This document shows positions 1 to 7,995 of a stretch of DNA of 20,473 bases, piece after piece. The DNA is from Escherichia coli (lineage in GTDB: Bacteria > Pseudomonadota > Gammaproteobacteria > Enterobacterales > Enterobacteriaceae): assembly GCF_003334315.1 (NCBI RefSeq), contig NZ_QOWR01000068.1. One strand, 5' to 3'. The translations under genes and the position numbers were made by a program. The stretch's first letter is position 1; each line of letters begins with the position of its first letter. The notes under the pieces are model-generated. The model had not been told where the DNA came from and searched no databases. It saw only the letters and a list, made by a program, of their open reading frames with translations.

Positions 1-148
1 GGTTGAGAAGCGGTGTAAGTGAACTGCAGTTGCCATGTTTTACGGCAGTGAGAGCAGAGATAGCGCTGATGTCCGGCGGTGCTTTTGCCGTTACGCACCA
101 CCCCGTCAGTAGCTGAACAGGAGGGACAGCTGATAGAAACAGAAGCCA
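1..148 (-). CDS. insA: IS1 InsA, N-terminal part only (continues past window start)
   Basis: GTG start at 148-146 on the - strand; translation [49 protein letters not shown] matches InsA as I recall it. Confidence 0.85.
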
Positions 149-204
149 CTGGAGCACCTAAAAAACACCATCATACACTAAATCAGTAAGTTGGCAGCAT
201 CACC
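1..204 (-). mobile_element. IS1 left end (terminal inverted repeat plus start of insA), truncated by the window edge
   Basis: Reverse complement of 1-204 reads GGTGATGCTGCCAACTTACTGAT... which I recognise as the IS1 left terminus; the ~23-bp terminal inverted repeat is at 182-204 and the element continues beyond position 1. Confidence 0.9.
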
Positions 205-326
205 CGGGTTGTCAGTTCCGATTAGATAGAACCATGTCATCACGGTCAGAATTATGTTGATGGTGAGCGTCAACTTTGACAGGTATTTTGTTAAAAATGA
301 AGAATTCATTTCCTTTCTTGCTTTCC

Positions 327-1265
327 TTATTGGTTTTTCACGTCAAGATTAATTATTGTTGATGCATTTTTCGAAGGTGAGGGGAGACGAATGCCACTCA
401 ACCTGTTAATGATGGATTCGCAGAATACAATGTCATTATCTTTCTGACTTGCATCAAATGCAGATATGCCACCATAACCGTCTGCGAATATCCTGGCATG
501 ACACACCGCATCATTAGCACCATCGATTCCGGAAATGGCTTTTGATAATGCATCCGTAATTATTTTAGTGTCATGCACTAATTCCTTCTTGCTTCGTCCA
601 TCCTGAGTGGCGAATGAGTATTCTTTCTTTACAGTTTCATCACAATATAATGCTGCACTTTCAGGTGAGTACATTCTCAGTTCCAGCCAGCTTGAGCTTG
701 CACTCGAACCGGCGCTATTCACCCATGTCATTAACATGCTTTCTTTTTTGGCTACCCTGACGACGTACACATCCGTAGTATTCGGACCACCCGCTATGGT
801 TGAGCAGATTTTATGAAACTCAATGCCTCTCTTCGTGAGTGATGAGGCAGGATTGAATGTACAATTCTCATTCAGATAACCACCACATTTTGATGGTGCC
901 ATTGATATATATTCAGGGCCGAACTTGGCTGGCATTGACGTTCCAAGGGAAACCTCCCAGCCTAATTCTTTTTTCCTTTTCTCCAACACTGTTGATTTAA
1001 CGCCCATAACATTGATGCGAGCAAATCCAGTGCGGAGTGACATTCCGGAAGCTGTTTGCGTAACACCGTCAGCCCAAACAATATCTGAGTTTGACTGCCA
1101 GTCCCACGACAAGCCGTGACCAGCATCCGGCATTGCTGAATAAACAAAATCACCCAACTCAGAACTGGGCCTTCCCGAAAGAGATTCGGGGGAAATATCT
1201 TCAGCGGATATAGCGTAAGGCGGGAGCATCGCAACCATAACAGATAACAGTATTAATCCTTTCAT
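327..1265 (-). CDS. hypothetical secreted protein (312 aa), family unassigned
   Basis: 1008-nt open frame on the - strand (track ORF 327..1334). The likely start is the internal ATG at 1265-1263, preceded by AGGA about 10 nt upstream. N-terminus MKGLILLSVMVAMLPPYAISA-EDI is a classic Sec signal peptide with an AxA cleavage site. Stop TAA at 329-327. Several rare ATA Ile codons and roughly 44% GC by eye. Confidence 0.6.
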   Translation of the reverse strand: MKGLILLSVMVAMLPPYAISAEDISPESLSGRPSSELGDFVYSAMPDAGHGLSWDWQSNSDIVWADGVTQTASGMSLRTGFARINVMGVKSTVLEKRKKELGWEVSLGTSMPAKFGPEYISMAPSKCGGYLNENCTFNPASSLTKRGIEFHKICSTIAGGPNTTDVYVVRVAKKESMLMTWVNSAGSSASSSWLELRMYSPESAALYCDETVKKEYSFATQDGRSKKELVHDTKIITDALSKAISGIDGANDAVCHARIFADGYGGISAFDASQKDNDIVFCESIINRLSGIRLPSPSKNASTIINLDVKNQ

Positions 1266-1605
1266 TTGAATCAGTTCCTGAAGCGAACATTCAGAACATT
1301 CAACAAGCCCAGTGAAGGCCGCAAGACATTTCAACCGTTAGGCGAACCAACCAGACTCAGTACATCCATATTCTGCGAGAACAAGGATGCCCACAAATCA
1401 CTGGATTCTCCCTTGGTTTATGTTGGTGCGCATAATGTATATTATGTTAAATCATGTCTGAGTGATGCGAAGTGCTTTTCTGGTAGTCGTTATTCGTTCA
1501 GGGTTCAAGAACTTAAGCCTCTCCTCTTTCATAATTGGCCTGTGCATGGAGAAATAGCCTGGTTATTCCCTGCCCCATGCTAAGAGCGCAGTGTCTGTCG
1601 CATAG

Positions 1606-1860
1606 ACACTGCATACGAAAACACCAGAGGGTGCTGTTACTTATTTAAGGACGGATCAAGCGGGAATGAGTCCACTCCGGTATCAGAAATGGCTACGTCT
1701 CAATGAAGTCAGGCGACCGATGCTGAATGAACATTACGATGTCACCACAGCAGCCTATGCTGTCGGTTACGAAAGCTATCCCATTTCAGTCGGGAATATT
1801 CGCGGATGTTTGGAGAGTCACCCAAGAGAGATATTACCAGGTTAAGAAAGTCTGTCGGAC
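1606..1860 (+). pseudogene. AraC-family regulator C-terminal HTH remnant, frameshifted (possibly the K-12 yneL-type fragment)
   Basis: Frame 1 (open from 1606) reads ...GMSPLRYQKWLRLNEVRRPMLNEHYDVTTAAYAVGYESYP, which fits the AraC second-HTH pattern (G-x-SP..Y....RL...A...L......I..IA..VGY.S). The expected tail continues in another frame (FQSGIFADVWRVTQERYYQVKK, part of track ORF 1727..1948). No start codon or N-terminal domain. Confidence 0.45.
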
Positions 1861-2113
1861 AGCTTTAATAAACCCTGCACTTATCTGTTTAGAGCAATTC
1901 GGTGTTAGTTTCAGCAAGCAAACATTAACCATAGCTAATGATTTATAGCCATATTAACCATTGGTAGCTCTTGACCTTTCCTGACACTTCCCTTGTTCGC
2001 AATAATATTCTGTTTAGTCACGGTTTATAAATAACATGCATAATGAAATCGTCATGTTATTTAGCGACATAAAATGTTTTTGCAAATACTCTCTTCAACA
2101 AGTGCAGCAATAA

Positions 2114-3349
2114 ACTTGTTGTGGAACCAATATCCAGGTCGCAGGATATCGCTATTCTACGCAAGGTTTTTATAACTTATCCGACAGTGCATACAGTCGA
2201 ATGAGTGGTTACACCGTCAAGCCTCCTACCGGAGACAGCAATGAGCAGACACAATTTATTGATTATTTTAATCTGTTCTACAGTAAGCGTGGTCAGGAAC
2301 AAATAAGCATCTCTCAGCAGCTTGGAAATTACGGTACGACATTTTTCAGTGCCAGTCGCCAAAGTTACTGGAACACGTCACGCAGCGACCAGCAAATATC
2401 ATTTGGATTAAATGTGCCGTTTGGTGATATTACGACTTCGCTGAATTACAGCTATTCCAATAATATATGGCAAAACGATCGGGATCATTTACTCGCTTTT
2501 ACGCTTAATGTTCCCTTTAGTCATTGGATGCGTACAGACAGTCAGTCGGCATTTCGTAATTCAAATGCCAGTTACAGTATGTCAAACGATTTGAAAGGCG
2601 GCATGACCAATCTATCGGGGGTTTATGGCACTCTGCTGCCGGATAATAACCTGAATTATAGCGTTCAGGTCGGTAACACCCAAGGGGGTAATACATCGTC
2701 TGGCACCAGTGGTTACAGTTCTCTTAATTATCGTGGAGCTTACGGTAATACGAATGTCGGTTACAGTCGGAGTGGTGACAGCAGCCAGATTTATTACGGA
2801 ATGAGTGGTGGGGTTATTGCTCATGCTGATGGCATCACCTTTGGACAGCCGCTGGGCGACACAATGGTTCTGGTTAAGGCTCCTGGCGCTGATAATGTCA
2901 AAATAGAGAACCAGACCGGAATTCATACCGACTGGCGTGGCTATGCAATATTACCATTTGCGACAGAATATAGAGAAAATCGTGTCGCTCTTAACGCGAA
3001 TTCCCTTGCAGATAATGTTGAACTGGATGAAACCGTAGTCACTGTCATCCCAACTCACGGTGCTATTGCCAGAGCAACATTTAATGCACAAATCGGCGGG
3101 AAAGTATTAATGACGTTGAAGTACGGTAATAAAAGCGTTCCATTCGGTGCAATTGTCACACACGGAGAGAATAAAAATGGCAGCATTGTCGCGGAAAACG
3201 GTCAGGTTTATCTGACTGGACTTCCACAGTCAGGGAAATTACAGGTTTCATGGGGCAAAGATAAAAACTCAAACTGTATTGTCGAGTACAAGCTTCCTGA
3301 AGTTTCTCCTGGTACCTTACTGAACCAGCAGACAGCAATCTGTCGCTAA
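2114..3349 (+). pseudogene. ydeT: fimbrial usher (FimD-like), C-terminal ~410 codons only; 5-prime truncated
   Basis: Frame is open from the stop at 2111-2113 and FimD-like homology starts immediately (GYRYSTQGFYNLSDSAYSRMSGY... through ...LLNQQTAICR). No N-terminal plug or barrel start, no signal peptide. The track ORF begins at an internal ATG (2201). Confidence 0.85.
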
Positions 3350-3362
3350 GGAACAATAGATT

Positions 3363-3893
3363 ATGAAATACAATAACATTATTTTCCTCGGTTTATGTCT
3401 GGGGTTAACCACCTATTCTGCTTTATCCGCAGATAGCGTTATTAAAATTAGCGGGCGCGTCCTCGATTATGGCTGCACAGTCTCATCGGATTCGCTTAAT
3501 TTTACCGTAGATCTCCAAAAAAACAGTGCCAGACAATTTCCAACGACCGGTAGCACAAGTCCAGCCGTCCCTTTTCAGATTACGTTAAGTGAATGCAGCA
3601 AAGGGACAACGGGGGTTCGGGTTGCATTTAACGGTATTGAGGATGCAGAAAATAATACTTTGTTGAAACTGGATGAAGGAAGCAATACGGCCTCCGGTTT
3701 GGGTATAGAAATATTGGACGCAAATATGCGTCCGGTGAAACTGAATGATCTTCATGCCGGGATGCAGTGGATCCCACTGGTACCAGAACAGAACAATATT
3801 TTGCCTTACTCCGCTCGTCTGAAGTCAACTCAGAAGTCCGTCAATCCGGGACTGGTGAGGGCTTCGGCAACCTTTACCCTTGAATTTCAATAA
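3363..3893 (+). CDS. ydeS: fimbrial minor subunit (FimF-like), 176 aa
   Basis: Signal peptide MKYNNIIFLGLCLGLTTYSALSA, conserved Cys pair, pilin-like C-terminal strand; AAGGAA 7 nt upstream; 13-bp gap after the usher fragment. Confidence 0.85.
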   Translation: MKYNNIIFLGLCLGLTTYSALSADSVIKISGRVLDYGCTVSSDSLNFTVDLQKNSARQFPTTGSTSPAVPFQITLSECSKGTTGVRVAFNGIEDAENNTLLKLDEGSNTASGLGIEILDANMRPVKLNDLHAGMQWIPLVPEQNNILPYSARLKSTQKSVNPGLVRASATFTLEFQ

Positions 3894-3905
3894 TCAGAGT
3901 CAGAT

Positions 3906-4409
3906 ATGAAAAGACTTCACAAGAGGTTCCTGTTAGCTACGTTTTGCGCGTTATTCACAGCAACTCTCCAGGCCGCCGATGTCACTATCACTGTTAATGG
4001 TCGGGTAGTCGCTAAACCCTGCACTATTCAAACCAAAGAAGCTAACGTTAATCTCGGGGATCTTTATACGCGCAATCTGCAACAACCTGGTTCTGCATCT
4101 GGCTGGCACAATATTACTTTGTCATTAACCGATTGTCCGGTTGAAACAAGTGCAGTGACGGCAATCGTGACAGGTTCAACTGACAATACGGGTTATTACA
4201 AAAATGAAGGTACTGCCGAAAATATTCAGATAGAGCTGAGGGATGACCAGGATGCTGCGTTAAAAAATGGCGATAGCAAAACGGTTATTGTTGATGAGAT
4301 CACTCATAATGCACAGTTTCCACTTAAGGCAAGAGCTATCACGGTGAATGGAAACGCAAGCCAGGGAACGATCGAGGCGCTAATCAATGTGATCTACACC
4401 TGGCAATAA
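3906..4409 (+). CDS. ydeR: fimbrial minor subunit (FimG-like), 167 aa
   Basis: Signal peptide [23 protein letters not shown], pilin-like fold signature, tightly spaced after ydeS. Confidence 0.85.
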
Positions 4410-4467
4410 CGTCGATTCGATTTTCTTAGCCTTCTTTTTAAATCAATTTTTAACCTTAGGATATATC

Positions 4468-5382
4468 ATGGGTAAAACAATCAGTATAAAGGTCCTGTTC
4501 GGTATTTATCTTCTATTAATGGCAGGCAAAGTTTTTGCCTTCAGTTGTAATGTCGATGGCGGGTCAAGTATTGGAGCAGGTACAACCTCTGTTTATGTTA
4601 ATCTCGACCCTGTAATACAGCCGGGCCAGAATCTGGTTGTAGACTTGTCTCAGCATATAAGTTGCTGGAATGATTACGGCGGCTGGTACGACACTGATCA
4701 TATAAACCTGGTACAAGGCTCAGCTTTCGCAGGCTCCCTACAGTCATATAAAGGATCGCTGTACTGGAATAATGTGACCTACCCCTTCCCGTTGACGACA
4801 AATACCAACGTATTGGATATTGGTGATAAGACACCGATGCCATTACCGTTAAAACTCTATATTACCCCAGTTGGGGCGGCCGGTGGAGTTGTCATAAAAG
4901 CGGGGGAAGTCATTGCCCGTATTCATATGTATAAAATTGCAACATTAGGAAGCGGAAATCCGCGTAATTTTACGTGGAATATTATTTCAAATAACAATGT
5001 TGTTATGCCAACAGGCGGCTGCACCGTTGATAGTCGTAATGTCACCGTGGATCTCCCGGACTTTCCTGGAAGCGCAGAAATACCCCTTGGCGTATATTGC
5101 TCAAGCGAACAAAAGCTCTCATTTTATCTTTCGGGTGCCACCACTGACAGTAGCCGACAAGTGTTTGCTAACACAGCACCTGATGCAACAAAAGCATCGG
5201 GAGTGGGTGTCACTCTAATGCGTAATGGAAAAATACTGGCTACGGGAGAAAATGTCTCCCTGGGGACAGTAAATAAAAGCAAAGTACCTCTGGGTTTAAG
5301 CGCAACCTATGGACAAACAGGAAACAAGGTTTCAGCCGGAACCGTCCAGTCAGTCATTGGTGTCACTTTTATCTATGAATAA
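4468..5382 (+). CDS. ydeQ: FimH-like fimbrial tip adhesin, 304 aa
   Basis: Clear FimH-like similarity along the whole length (e.g. [46 protein letters not shown]); signal peptide; AGGA upstream. Confidence 0.88.
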
Positions 5383-5454
5383 TTGTGATTTTGACCTTAG
5401 TCTATGCGCTCCATTCACGAAAATTGCGCGGATAATTATTTTGTGAAGGCTATT

Positions 5455-5472
5455 AGCCTACACCTGTAAGAA
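5455..5472 (+). promoter_or_regulatory. EvgA-box-like dyad upstream of ydeP
   Basis: AGCCTACA-CC-TGTAAGAA against the 18-bp EvgA consensus TTCYTACA-N2-TGTARGAA as I recall it (right half perfect, left half 6/8). Confidence 0.6.
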
Positions 5473-5564
5473 AATCCGCGCACAATTGAAGCCAGAGTCT
5501 TATTTTTTATATTGAAAAATATGTTAATTTAAACACTATGAGAGATGATGCTTAACTTATCGTA

Positions 5565-5596
5565 TTTAATCTATTGTTTAACGATAATAGATTAAA
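5565..5596 (+). promoter_or_regulatory. perfect 11-bp inverted repeat with 10-bp spacer (candidate operator) upstream of ydeP
   Basis: TTTAATCTATT-gtttaacgat-AATAGATTAAA, about 120 bp upstream of the ydeP ATG. Confidence 0.35.
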
Positions 5597-5715
5597 AATA
5601 GAAAGAGAGTAGTCCCCTACTCTTATATATCCATGTTGGCGATAATCCCTTTGTATGTACTGTGCATCATCGCTATTACAAATCCTAATAATTCATTTCC
5701 ACACAGGATAAGTAG

Positions 5716-7995
5716 ATGAAGAAAAAAATTGAATCCTACCAGGGTGCTGCAGGTGGTTGGGGTGCTGTTAAATCCGTAGCGAATGCAGTACGTAAGCAGA
5801 TGGATATACGCCAGGATGTTATTGCCATGTTTGACATGAATAAGCCAGAGGGCTTTGACTGTCCGGGTTGTGCATGGCCAGATCCTAAGCACAGTGCGTC
5901 ATTCGACATTTGTGAAAACGGCGCAAAAGCAATCGCCTGGGAAGTCACGGATAAGCAGGTAAACGCCTCTTTCTTTGCTGAGAATACGGTTCAATCATTA
6001 CTTACCTGGGGAGACCACGAGCTTGAGGCTGCGGGGCGACTCACTCAGCCTTTGAAATATGATGCCGTCAGCGACTGTTACAAGCCATTAAGCTGGCAAC
6101 AAGCTTTCGACGAAATTGGCGCACGCCTTCAAAGCTATAGTGATCCCAATCAGGTTGAATTCTATACTTCGGGCCGCACTTCCAATGAAGCTGCCTTTCT
6201 TTATCAGCTTTTTGCCCGTGAATACGGGAGCAATAACTTTCCCGACTGCTCCAACATGTGCCATGAACCGACAAGCGTGGGTTTGGCAGCGAGTATCGGT
6301 GTAGGTAAAGGGACCGTGTTGCTGGAAGACTTTGAGAAGTGCGATTTAGTCATTTGCATTGGGCATAACCCTGGTACAAACCACCCTCGCATGCTGACTT
6401 CGTTGCGCGCTTTAGTGAAACGGGGAGCGAAAATGATCGCCATCAATCCTCTACAGGAACGTGGCCTGGAGCGATTTACCGCACCGCAAAACCCGTTTGA
6501 AATGCTGACGAACTCTGAGACTCAGTTGGCCAGTGCCTACTATAACGTGCGCATTGGTGGCGATATGGCGTTGCTCAAGGGGATGATGCGCCTGTTAATT
6601 GAGCGCGATGATGCTGCAAGCGCCGCAGGTCGGCCTTCATTGCTTGATGACGAGTTTATTCAAACGCATACCGTCGGCTTTGACGAGCTACGCCGTGACG
6701 TTCTCAATTCCGAGTGGAAAGATATCGAACGTATTTCTGGACTAAGTCAGACACAAATCGCCGAACTGGCTGACGCATATGCCGCTGCCGAACGCACCAT
6801 TATCTGTTACGGAATGGGGATCACTCAGCACGAACATGGTACCCAGAACGTACAGCAACTGGTCAATCTGCTGTTGATGAAAGGTAACATTGGCAAGCCT
6901 GGTGCGGGTATCTGCCCACTACGTGGACACTCTAATGTACAGGGCGACCGAACCGTCGGTATCACCGAGAAACCGTCTGCAGAGTTTCTGGCTCGTCTGG
7001 GTGAGCGCTATGGCTTCACCCCACCTCATGCACCTGGACATGCTGCAATTGCCAGCATGCAAGCAATATGTACGGGGCAGGCTCGAGCATTGATCTGCAT
7101 GGGGGGCAATTTTGCGCTGGCAATGCCAGATCGGGAAGCGAGCGCTGTACCGTTAACGCAATTAGATTTGGCGGTACACGTAGCCACTAAGCTTAACCGC
7201 TCTCATCTGTTGACCGCACGGCATAGCTATATTCTGCCGGTCCTGGGACGTAGCGAGATTGACATGCAAAAAAACGGTGCGCAGGCGGTAACCGTTGAGG
7301 ATTCAATGTCGATGATTCATGCCTCGCGTGGCGTGTTAAAACCCGCCGGTGTAATGCTGAAATCAGAGTGTGCAGTGGTCGCGGGAATCGCGCAGGCAGC
7401 ACTACCCCAGAGCGTGGTAGCCTGGGAGTATCTGGTGGAAGATTATGATCGCATTCGCAATGACATTGAAGCTGTGCTGCCAGAGTTCGCCGACTATAAC
7501 CAGCGCATCCGTCATCCCGGTGGTTTTCACCTGATAAATGCAGCTGCTGAAAGGCGCTGGATGACGCCGTCAGGTAAGGCTAATTTCATTACCAGCAAAG
7601 GGCTGTTAGAAGATCCCTCTTCAGCGTTTAACAGTAAGCTGGTCATGGCGACAGTACGCAGCCACGATCAGTACAACACGACGATTTATGGTATGGATGA
7701 TCGCTATCGAGGGGTATTCGGTCAACGAGATGTGGTCTTTATGAGTGCTAAACAAGCTAAAATTTGCCGTGTAAAAAACGGCGAAAGAGTTAATCTTATT
7801 GCGCTTACGCCAGACGGTAAGCGCAGCTCACGCCGCATGGATAGATTAAAAGTGGTCATTTACCCTATGGCTGACCGCTCACTGGTGACCTATTTTCCAG
7901 AATCGAATCACATGCTAACACTTGATAACCACGATCCATTAAGTGGCATTCCTGGCTATAAAAGTATTCCGGTTGAATTAGAACCATCAAATTAA
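5716..7995 (+). CDS. ydeP: molybdopterin oxidoreductase, formate-dehydrogenase-like; acid-resistance protein, 759 aa
   Basis: Recognised sequence ([25 protein letters not shown]...); N-terminal Cys cluster CPGCAWPD; AGGA upstream. Confidence 0.9.

Follow-up and report, generated by a model that had tools for sequence, protein, structure and literature searches.

Integrative mobile elements exploiting XerCD (IMEXs) have been described as VGJ-phi, CTX-phi and TLC-phi in Vibrio and as the gonococcal genetic island, all of which share a dif site paired with a degenerate copy, the lack of a recombinase of their own and the formation of tandem arrays, with the crossover placed on the XerC side of the central region and with filamentous phages as the classical dif-integrating elements (PMC6744903). 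The experimentally confirmed 28-bp dif of E. coli is GGTGCGCATAATGTATATTATGTTAAAT (as quoted in PMC3025954), and it adjoins hipA (PMC5638614). The periplasmic domain III of TolA is the docking point of the filamentous-phage protein pIII (g3p N1) and of group A colicins, both of which bind by beta-strand augmentation (PMC7391070), and the same domain is described as a phage and colicin docking site in PMC4339652. In the host protein, domain III (PF06519; PDB 1TOL, 2X9A and 1S62) follows a transmembrane anchor that couples TolA to TolQR and a long helical domain II, and the gene is located in the tol-pal operon. Saturation of one side of the interaction between TolA and pIII or colicins blocks entry, as in the superinfection immunity given by Ff pIII (g3p) or with a dominant-negative periplasmic TolA III, and toxin-carrying phages are found among the dif integrators that enter via TolA domain III. 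Levengood-Freyermuth and colleagues are said to have reported (J Bacteriol, 1993) that TolA III alone, when exported to the periplasm, renders E. coli colicin-tolerant and leaky. T5 Llp and phi80 Cor, small exported or lipidated proteins borne by mobile elements, act against an entry receptor, in their case by masking FhuA in the outer membrane.

The window, that is, the whole stretch of 20,473 nucleotides from E. coli contig NZ_QOWR01000068.1 that was analysed, carries beside its dif site a minus-strand gene for a 312-aa protein that brings these two subjects together. The features of this region are as follows.
1-204, no strand assigned: IS1 end (terminal 204 bp), a secondary insertion into the element; the window begins inside IS1.
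205-309, minus strand: first 35 codons of a truncated gene for a 119-aa membrane protein (WP_063078926 in other strains), cut by IS1.
327-1265, minus strand: intact gene for a two-domain protein of 312 aa, predicted to be exported (stop codon at 327-329; dN/dS against Kluyvera; AF2 model).
330-614, minus strand: C-terminal domain, residues ~218-312, a TolA domain III homologue (alpha-beta-beta-alpha-beta, Cys255 and Cys282).
630-1202, minus strand: N-terminal domain, residues ~22-212, of an uncharacterised beta-rich envelope-domain family with two conserved Cys pairs.
1203-1265, minus strand: predicted signal peptide, residues 1-21 (MKGLILLSVMVAMLPPYAISA), from hydropathy, low pLDDT and the N-termini of relatives.
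1266-1424, minus strand: element-internal leader from dif to the start codon, presumed to be the promoter region; 1400-1424 resembles the K-12 flank of dif.
1425-1452, plus strand: chromosomal dif, with XerC arm GGTGCGCATAA, centre TGTATA and XerD arm TTATGTTAAAT (exact 28/28 match, 0 expected by chance).
~1660-1868, plus strand: yneL remnant, an AraC-type HTH pseudogene by the annotations in ET220 and K-12, in host DNA outside the element.

The minus strand runs for 336 codons without a stop from 1334 to 327 (ORF from a TTG), and the ATG at 1265 gives the 312-aa product, whereas the longest open run in 2000 shuffles of 205-2113 averaged 98 codons (SD 21) and never exceeded 221. Against the Kluyvera orthologue dS reaches ~1.6 yet dN is only 0.16 (dN/dS 0.10); a frame far longer than chance and so few replacements therefore make this a real, constrained gene under strong purifying selection. 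Differential constraint was observed along the protein, dN/dS being lowest in residues 22-212 (0.06), higher in residues 213-312 (0.13) and highest in the signal peptide (0.39). The sequence AGGA lies 9 nt 5' of the ATG, no consensus sigma-70 site was found upstream of the ORF in a promoter scan, and rare codons are enriched in the gene (ATA in 8 of 21 Ile codons; AGA or AGG in 7 of 11 Arg codons). A preliminary description of this DNA, made from its letters alone, had judged the long frame improbable by chance and preceded by a plausible ribosome-binding site, both of which are borne out, and had set the gene apart by its codon usage and lower GC content; the codon bias stands, whereas the GC content of the ORF (44.0%) is close to that of the adjacent yde fimbrial genes (44.5-44.8%), so that low GC as a mark of foreign origin was dropped.

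The frame is intact in the window and uninterrupted in most of the 55 genomes holding a place that covers at least 80% of it, and wherever the same ORF was found annotated it is called a hypothetical protein. A decaying or functionless passenger gene might be suspected from the loss of the downstream partner to IS1 in this window and from copies elsewhere that are frameshifted or IS-interrupted, but the low dN/dS over so large a dS, the prevailing intactness of the ORF, a very confident structure model and a two-domain architecture kept down to ~30% identity make this reading scarcely credible.

The dif site at 1425-1452 represents the right-hand boundary of an element of ~3.4 kb, with the crossover at ~1435-1438. 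Similarity to K-12 restarts at position 1400 of the window and everything from there to hipA is absent from K-12, which has between hipA and yneL a single dif, no element and thus the empty site. The dif site had escaped the preliminary description, and the cumulative GC skew of the window turns nearby, between about 2000 and 2600. The element junctions have a 39-bp repeat in common, the core of which is the canonical 28-bp dif; the idea that the repeat serves some undetected integrase as its att site gave way to a reading as dif plus 25 bp of shared flank. In ET220, YZ22MPE6, QL57EC and E. coli C, a hybrid pseudo-dif, GGTGCGCATAA-TGTGTTGA-ACATGTTAAAT, lies on the hipA side and dif on the yneL side; the far-end pseudo-dif is GGTGCGCATAATGTGTTGAACATGTTAAAT in L001, L002, L013, L014 and L003; and this same pair of dif and pseudo-dif bounds the element at 7 loci, with E. 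coli and Kluyvera both represented. The ~3.4-kb element is likewise present at the dif of Kluyvera, with dif-distal flanking genes that differ among contigs, and it forms tandem arrays of 2 copies in ET220 and 6 in ET791. Another copy, on the IncF plasmid pEk72-1 of Enterobacter kobei, lies between GGTTCGCATAA+TGTGTTGAACATGTTAAAT and GGTGCGCATAA-CAAAGA-TTATGTTAAAT, and at these junctions the arms are swapped exactly at the border of XerC arm and centre, with no homology in the central region; the crossover is thus on the XerC side, as in the known IMEXs.

The element contains three genes, including that of a 315-aa backbone protein, as well as an 813-bp non-coding stretch that is conserved as well as the backbone gene and holds no other conserved ORF. 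It is a mosaic between E. coli and Kluyvera, with 85-100% identity in the backbone and only 60-80% in the cargo half. At ~30% identity, the 315-aa protein resembles phage HNH-homing-endonuclease/wHTH proteins; the possibility that it is an active HNH nuclease or integrase was considered and rejected, its HNH motif looking degenerate by eye and no significant Pfam match being obtained (best E 0.028, Thioester domain), and no DUF3653/XafT homologue was detected in this protein, the one element ORF scanned. No recombinase was found among the element genes, no replication initiator was recognised in the element, and an Rfam search of it gave only a sub-threshold RsmY match. Because the element is bounded by dif and a hybrid site, has an empty counterpart in K-12, forms arrays and lacks a recombinase, it fits the defining features of an IMEX, its Xer dependence being putative and read from sequence, and the 312-aa gene is in all likelihood IMEX cargo. 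It differs from the IMEXs known so far in being only ~3.4 kb long, without phage morphogenesis genes or recognisable replication genes, and in carrying the degenerate HNH/wHTH-like gene together with swappable TolA-like cargo. The gene had been taken for strain-specific, horizontally acquired cargo, and it is indeed real, acquired and strain-variable; its vehicle is the Xer-site element and not IS1.

The same features bear on a satellite filamentous phage, in which the 312-aa protein would be a virion or adsorption component in a gIII-gVI-like gene order and the element would be packaged like RS1 or TLC-phi. Location at dif, tandem arrays and the lack of an integrase are those of filamentous-phage IMEXs, a secreted protein is followed by the hydrophobic 119-aa protein, and the conserved 813-bp stretch would suit an origin or packaging signal. 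On the other hand, the 312-aa protein has no pIII-like C-terminal membrane anchor, neither PHROGs nor the structural searches linked it to pIII, pVI or another inovirus protein, no relative was found in IMG/VR or among GenBank phages, a replication initiator is missing from the recognised content, and its fold corresponds to the receptor (TolA) rather than to the ligand, all of which render a satellite phage very improbable. The analogy of the 312-aa and 119-aa pair with pIII and pVI, having neither PHROG nor fold support, was discarded.

On the left, IS1 is the annotation of more than 5000 plasmid records that match positions 1-~226 at 96-99%; its terminal inverted repeat reaches to 204, similarity to element-bearing genomes begins at 205, and this IS1 junction occurs in no complete E. 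coli genome of the collection. The ORF at 178-309 corresponds to the N-terminal part of a 119-aa gene that is intact in ET220 and YZ22MPE6, and the intact product has 2-3 hydrophobic segments; the 119-aa gene is kept beside the 312-aa gene in Kluyvera, with a dN/dS of 0.12. The truncated gene at 205-309 had likewise escaped the preliminary description. The loss of the partner gene to IS1 may have left the module impaired in this window. The IS1 terminus and the AraC-type remnant had both been recognised from the sequence, the former placed here at 1-204 by its inverted repeat and the plasmid matches and the latter being yneL. The view that the gene occupies the position of hipBA, or stands in its stead, did not survive comparison across E. 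coli: the insertion point of the element is dif, between hipA and yneL, K-12 has dif at this position, hipBA is retained intact just beyond the element in 5 of 5 annotated E. coli genomes that carry it (ET220, YZ22MPE6, QL57EC, E. coli C and ET791), and IS1 hides the DNA further left in this window. A replacement of hipBA by the 312-aa gene was accordingly rejected for these genomes.

By hydropathy, the N-terminus of the product, MKGLILLSVMVAMLPPYAISA|EDI, shows the n, h and c regions expected of a Sec signal peptide, and residues 1-20 are of low pLDDT, in agreement with the canonical signal peptide noted in the preliminary description; at the same position relatives have signal peptides, lipoboxes or lipoprotein annotations, or transmembrane anchors. 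The protein is thus predicted to be Sec-exported and periplasmic. The AF2 model of the 312-aa protein is of high confidence (pLDDT 93.9, pTM 0.87), and the six cysteines of the protein represent three conserved pairs, with three predicted disulfides.

Pfam, NCBIfam and PDB sequence searches with the single 312-aa protein gave no match, Pfam returning nothing even at E <= 10; a word-indexed homologue search, profile included, returned close relatives only; the search of AFDB50 returned only uncharacterised proteins; and a BFVD fold search gave nothing at E <= 0.001. No relatives were found in GenBank phages by tblastn or in IMG/VR by scanning, and PADLOC defence models matched none of the 312-aa, 119-aa and variant B proteins. 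The preliminary description could not place the product in any family by eye, and single-sequence searches of Pfam, NCBIfam and PDB agree with this; however, homology to TolA domain III is seen in its C-terminal third, and its N-terminal two thirds fall in a sizeable uncharacterised family.

This second family emerged from a HMMER search that covered all of 1.84 billion cluster representatives and gave 272 relatives of the 312-aa protein, most of which are ~210-240 aa long and aligned to residues ~22-205 only, while a few of 320-350 aa match end to end at ~30% identity. The N-terminal domain corresponds to phrog_24752 in PHROGs (E 1.7e-20), which has no assigned function there. Nearly invariant in the family are W54, W64, R78, G80, R83, E100, W103 and a GSGG motif, as well as four cysteines (C127, C135, C154 and C208). 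The best structural neighbours of the domain form one fold class, PsbP/Mog1/DcrB-like (PDB 2XB3, 6E8A and 5YFG), with 100-110 aligned residues. Relatives are fused to J-domain, zinc-ribbon, Imm_superinfect, PDZ, Sel1, PG_binding_1 and TolA modules, and because they bear signal peptides, lipoprotein annotations and transmembrane anchors together with these fusions, the sequences point to an envelope location of the family. The neighbourhoods of distant homologues, known from five contigs, include a prophage-like region (L011), a primase/resolvase element (L009) and a place beside KwaA of Kiwa (L008).

Since the N-terminal domain is more conserved than the TolA-like domain (dN/dS as given above) and is common without it, it could be the real effector, a Trp/Arg/Glu-rich, disulfide-bonded module that acts much as superinfection-exclusion or immunity proteins do, by binding or inhibiting an envelope component, an incoming enzyme or a toxin (peptidoglycan hydrolases of phages or of the T6SS are examples, as are receptors), with the TolA-like domain merely positioning it. 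Its stand-alone occurrence in mostly ~220-aa exported proteins or lipoproteins among the 272 cluster representatives, the mobile and defence contexts of the homologues, its membership of a PHROG family and its fusions elsewhere to PG_binding_1, Sel1, PDZ and Imm_superinfect are in keeping with such a role. Nevertheless, the domain is dispensable in the dif element, where cargo variants B and C lack it and keep the TolA domain, and no inhibitor or immunity family was matched in Pfam, NCBIfam or PADLOC; an N-terminal effector is accordingly regarded as unlikely.

In the C-terminal domain, the modelled alpha-beta-beta-alpha-beta fold is superposable on the solved structures of TolA III, a profile built from 13 C-domains of the family finds E. 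coli TolA III at E 3.5e-6, and C255 and C282, invariant in the family, are aligned with both cysteines of E. coli TolA III; a periplasmic location, predicted here, is also shared. PF06519 (TolA) matches 2-4 of 137 relatives, and pairwise BLASTP of the 312-aa protein against E. coli TolA gave no match. Unlike TolA, the 312-aa protein is coded by a mobile element and has an unrelated globular domain in front of the TolA III-like one, which retains 18% identity to E. coli TolA III and has lost 4 residues ahead of the last strand. The protein cannot be counted as a TolA orthologue, because the true tolA of the host resides elsewhere, in the tol-pal operon, and because the membrane anchor and the long helical domain II are both absent, a signal peptide and a globular beta-rich domain being present instead. 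The product is very probably an exported, TolA-III-like two-domain protein.

The 315-aa backbone gene was detected in 95 of 5426 complete E. coli genomes, chromosomal in all, and three cargo versions were found behind one common leader and MKRLI start.
Variant A: 312-aa and 119-aa (2-3-TM) proteins, in 56 of 5426 complete E. coli genomes; the version of this window.
Variant B: 134-aa and 220-aa proteins, predicted to be exported, in 27 genomes.
Variant C: a 363-aa protein, predicted to be exported, in E. coli C and in the plasmid copy.
The 220-aa protein of variant B and the 363-aa protein of variant C carry the annotation 'TolA C-terminal domain-containing', and their BLASTP matches to E. coli TolA have E values of 1e-12 and 1e-14, respectively; variant C has in addition a Lys/Ala-rich stretch resembling TolA domain II, and variant A has the most diverged TolA domain of the three. 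Recombinants between cargo variants exist (L002 and P0007). All three versions thus encode a TolA-III-like protein that is anchor-less and, by prediction, exported.

As TolA III docks pIII and colicins, and a free, un-energised copy would be expected to titrate them, a decoy or entry-exclusion function of the 312-aa protein, argued by analogy, is possible rather than probable. The exported protein would be a soluble TolA mimic uncoupled from the proton-motive force and TolQR; this free periplasmic copy of TolA III would capture pIII or group A colicins before the TolQR-energised TolA does, entry would be blocked, and both the host and the element's own dif integration site would be protected against filamentous phages, with the 119-aa membrane protein as a conserved partner of the 312-aa protein. 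When compared with Ff pIII immunity, the component in excess would be the receptor domain and not the ligand, and the source a natural gene and not a laboratory construct; when compared with T5 Llp and phi80 Cor, which have no sequence or fold relation to the 312-aa protein, it would mimic a periplasmic co-receptor where those proteins mask an outer-membrane receptor. Several points speak against a decoy: with 18% identity, no pairwise match and the 4-residue deletion, variant A may no longer bind TolA ligands; a free TolA III that binds TolB would harm the host envelope; the N-terminal domain is under the stronger constraint and is common without a TolA domain; and neither the PADLOC search nor the promoter scan gave a match.

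Another reading is a modulator of host Tol-Pal, whose TolA III-like domain would bind the TolB N-terminus or CpoB, with outer-membrane vesiculation, leakiness or altered division-site remodelling as outcomes and the element or an extruding helper filamentous phage as beneficiary. TolB(22-33) and CpoB are the physiological partners of TolA III (PMC7391070), any binding would be dominant-negative since the anchor for TolQR coupling is missing, and the domain II-like stretch of variant C agrees with such a role. Yet interference of this kind is costly to the host, the element is stably carried, in one strain as six copies, and the marked divergence of the domain from its host counterpart speaks against kept TolB binding, so that a Tol-Pal modulator seems distinctly unlikely. 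Taken as a whole, the best explanation is an IMEX-borne exported TolA-III protein acting as a TolA decoy, which we regard as plausible while holding it tentatively. That a family of tiny Xer-mobilised elements at dif and plasmid Xer sites supplies exchangeable soluble TolA mimics, with a different TolA-dependent invader as the target of each, is a more doubtful extension of the decoy reading.

Full-text literature searches gave no paper on the 312-aa protein, on 'TolA C-terminal domain-containing' cargo or on the element; IMEXs and TolA III are both known, whereas a 3.4-kb dif element with a recurrent yet exchangeable cargo in the form of an exported TolA mimic has apparently not been described. 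Whatever its function, the cargo belongs to an apparently undescribed small IMEX of E. coli (including the laboratory strain E. coli C), Kluyvera and Enterobacter, with a conserved backbone and cassette-like cargo. With it the range of Xer-exploiting elements is no longer confined to phages and large islands, and Xer-mediated integration at chromosomal and plasmid sites gains a simple model. For the uncharacterised envelope-domain family to which the N-terminal domain belongs, with its 272 or more sequence clusters, the PsbP/Mog1/DcrB-like neighbours give a tentative first structural placement. These results are of relevance to the Xer/IMEX, inovirus and Tol-Pal fields. If true, a mobile exported TolA mimic would represent a new type of entry-blocking protection and a tool for dissecting Tol-dependent import, a receptor-mimicry defence uncatalogued among known defence systems, and a way for one dif-integrating element to exclude its filamentous-phage competitors.

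The host side of the element is marked in the window by the 28-bp E. coli dif site, present without a mismatch about 160 bp upstream of the start of the ORF (the exported 312-aa protein gene); the window thus covers the terminus of replication. Along the window, the cumulative GC skew is lowest at about 2000–2600 and then climbs. From yneL/ydeT onward the sequence is 99.5% identical to K-12 across window 1400–6000, and the ORFs past 6000 keep the K-12 gene order. At the other end the element is cut by IS1, and the 813-bp region, the 315-aa gene and hipBA cannot be seen in the window; the IS1 junction at the 119-aa gene had no match among the complete E. coli genomes of the collection, so this DNA may come from a lineage rich in IS1, for example Shigella. 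The features concerned, including those of the element-bearing locus L001, are as follows.

Features of the window and of the element-bearing locus L001
Window 1–204: IS1 end
Window 205–309, - strand: remnant of the element's 119-aa membrane-protein gene, interrupted by IS1 past codon 35
Window 1425–1452: dif, 28 bp, exact copy of the E. coli site
Window 2123–3349: ydeT, usher pseudogene with N-terminal truncation, in the same state in K-12
L001 5985–6932: 315-aa backbone gene
L001 6933–7745: 813-bp stretch in the element interior, with the 119-aa gene on one side and the 315-aa gene on the other; absent from the window

The 813-bp stretch holds no conserved ORF and has no Rfam match, and it is as conserved as the backbone gene, with 86–100% identity between E. 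coli and Kluyvera. Candidate roles for it are an origin, Xer accessory sequences or a regulatory region. The 315-aa protein is about 30% identical to phage HNH homing endonucleases/wHTH proteins (phrog_2081, E 3e-35), its HNH motif looks degenerate by eye, and a comparison with Pfam gave nothing significant (best E 0.028, Thioester domain); it perhaps has a role in Xer-site integration as an Xer activation factor.

In K-12, which is without the element, dif is flanked on its XerC side by 25 bp that read ACTGGATTCTTCCTTGGTTTATATT, and the element's own terminal 25 bp (window 1400–1424) are nearly identical to this flank; the start of the same 25 bp, CTGGATTCT, is also common to the plasmid-borne element copy. 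The K-12 flank could be the scar of a past insertion, or the element could have captured host flank.

The element also occurs in multiple copies, as in E. coli ET791 (L015 12300–31800), where six copies stand in tandem at dif, one with variant A cargo (312 aa + 119 aa) beside hipA and then five with variant B cargo (134 aa + 220 aa); in ET220 there are two copies, both with variant A cargo, and one carries a frameshift. A distant full-length relative of the ORF product, P0010, comprises a TM anchor, the N-domain and a TolA-like domain. In L008 608–3213, a gene for KwaA of the Kiwa defence and a 295-aa gene stand directly upstream of the P0010 gene, a single case on a short contig.

The Enterobacter kobei IncF plasmid pEk72-1 (L016 4501–7770) bears a copy with variant C cargo (363 aa), which is inserted at a Xer-type site with the centre CAAAGA and adjoins a GNAT/DUF1778 toxin-antitoxin pair. 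Since the same element is found in an IncF plasmid, it moves between chromosomes and plasmids.
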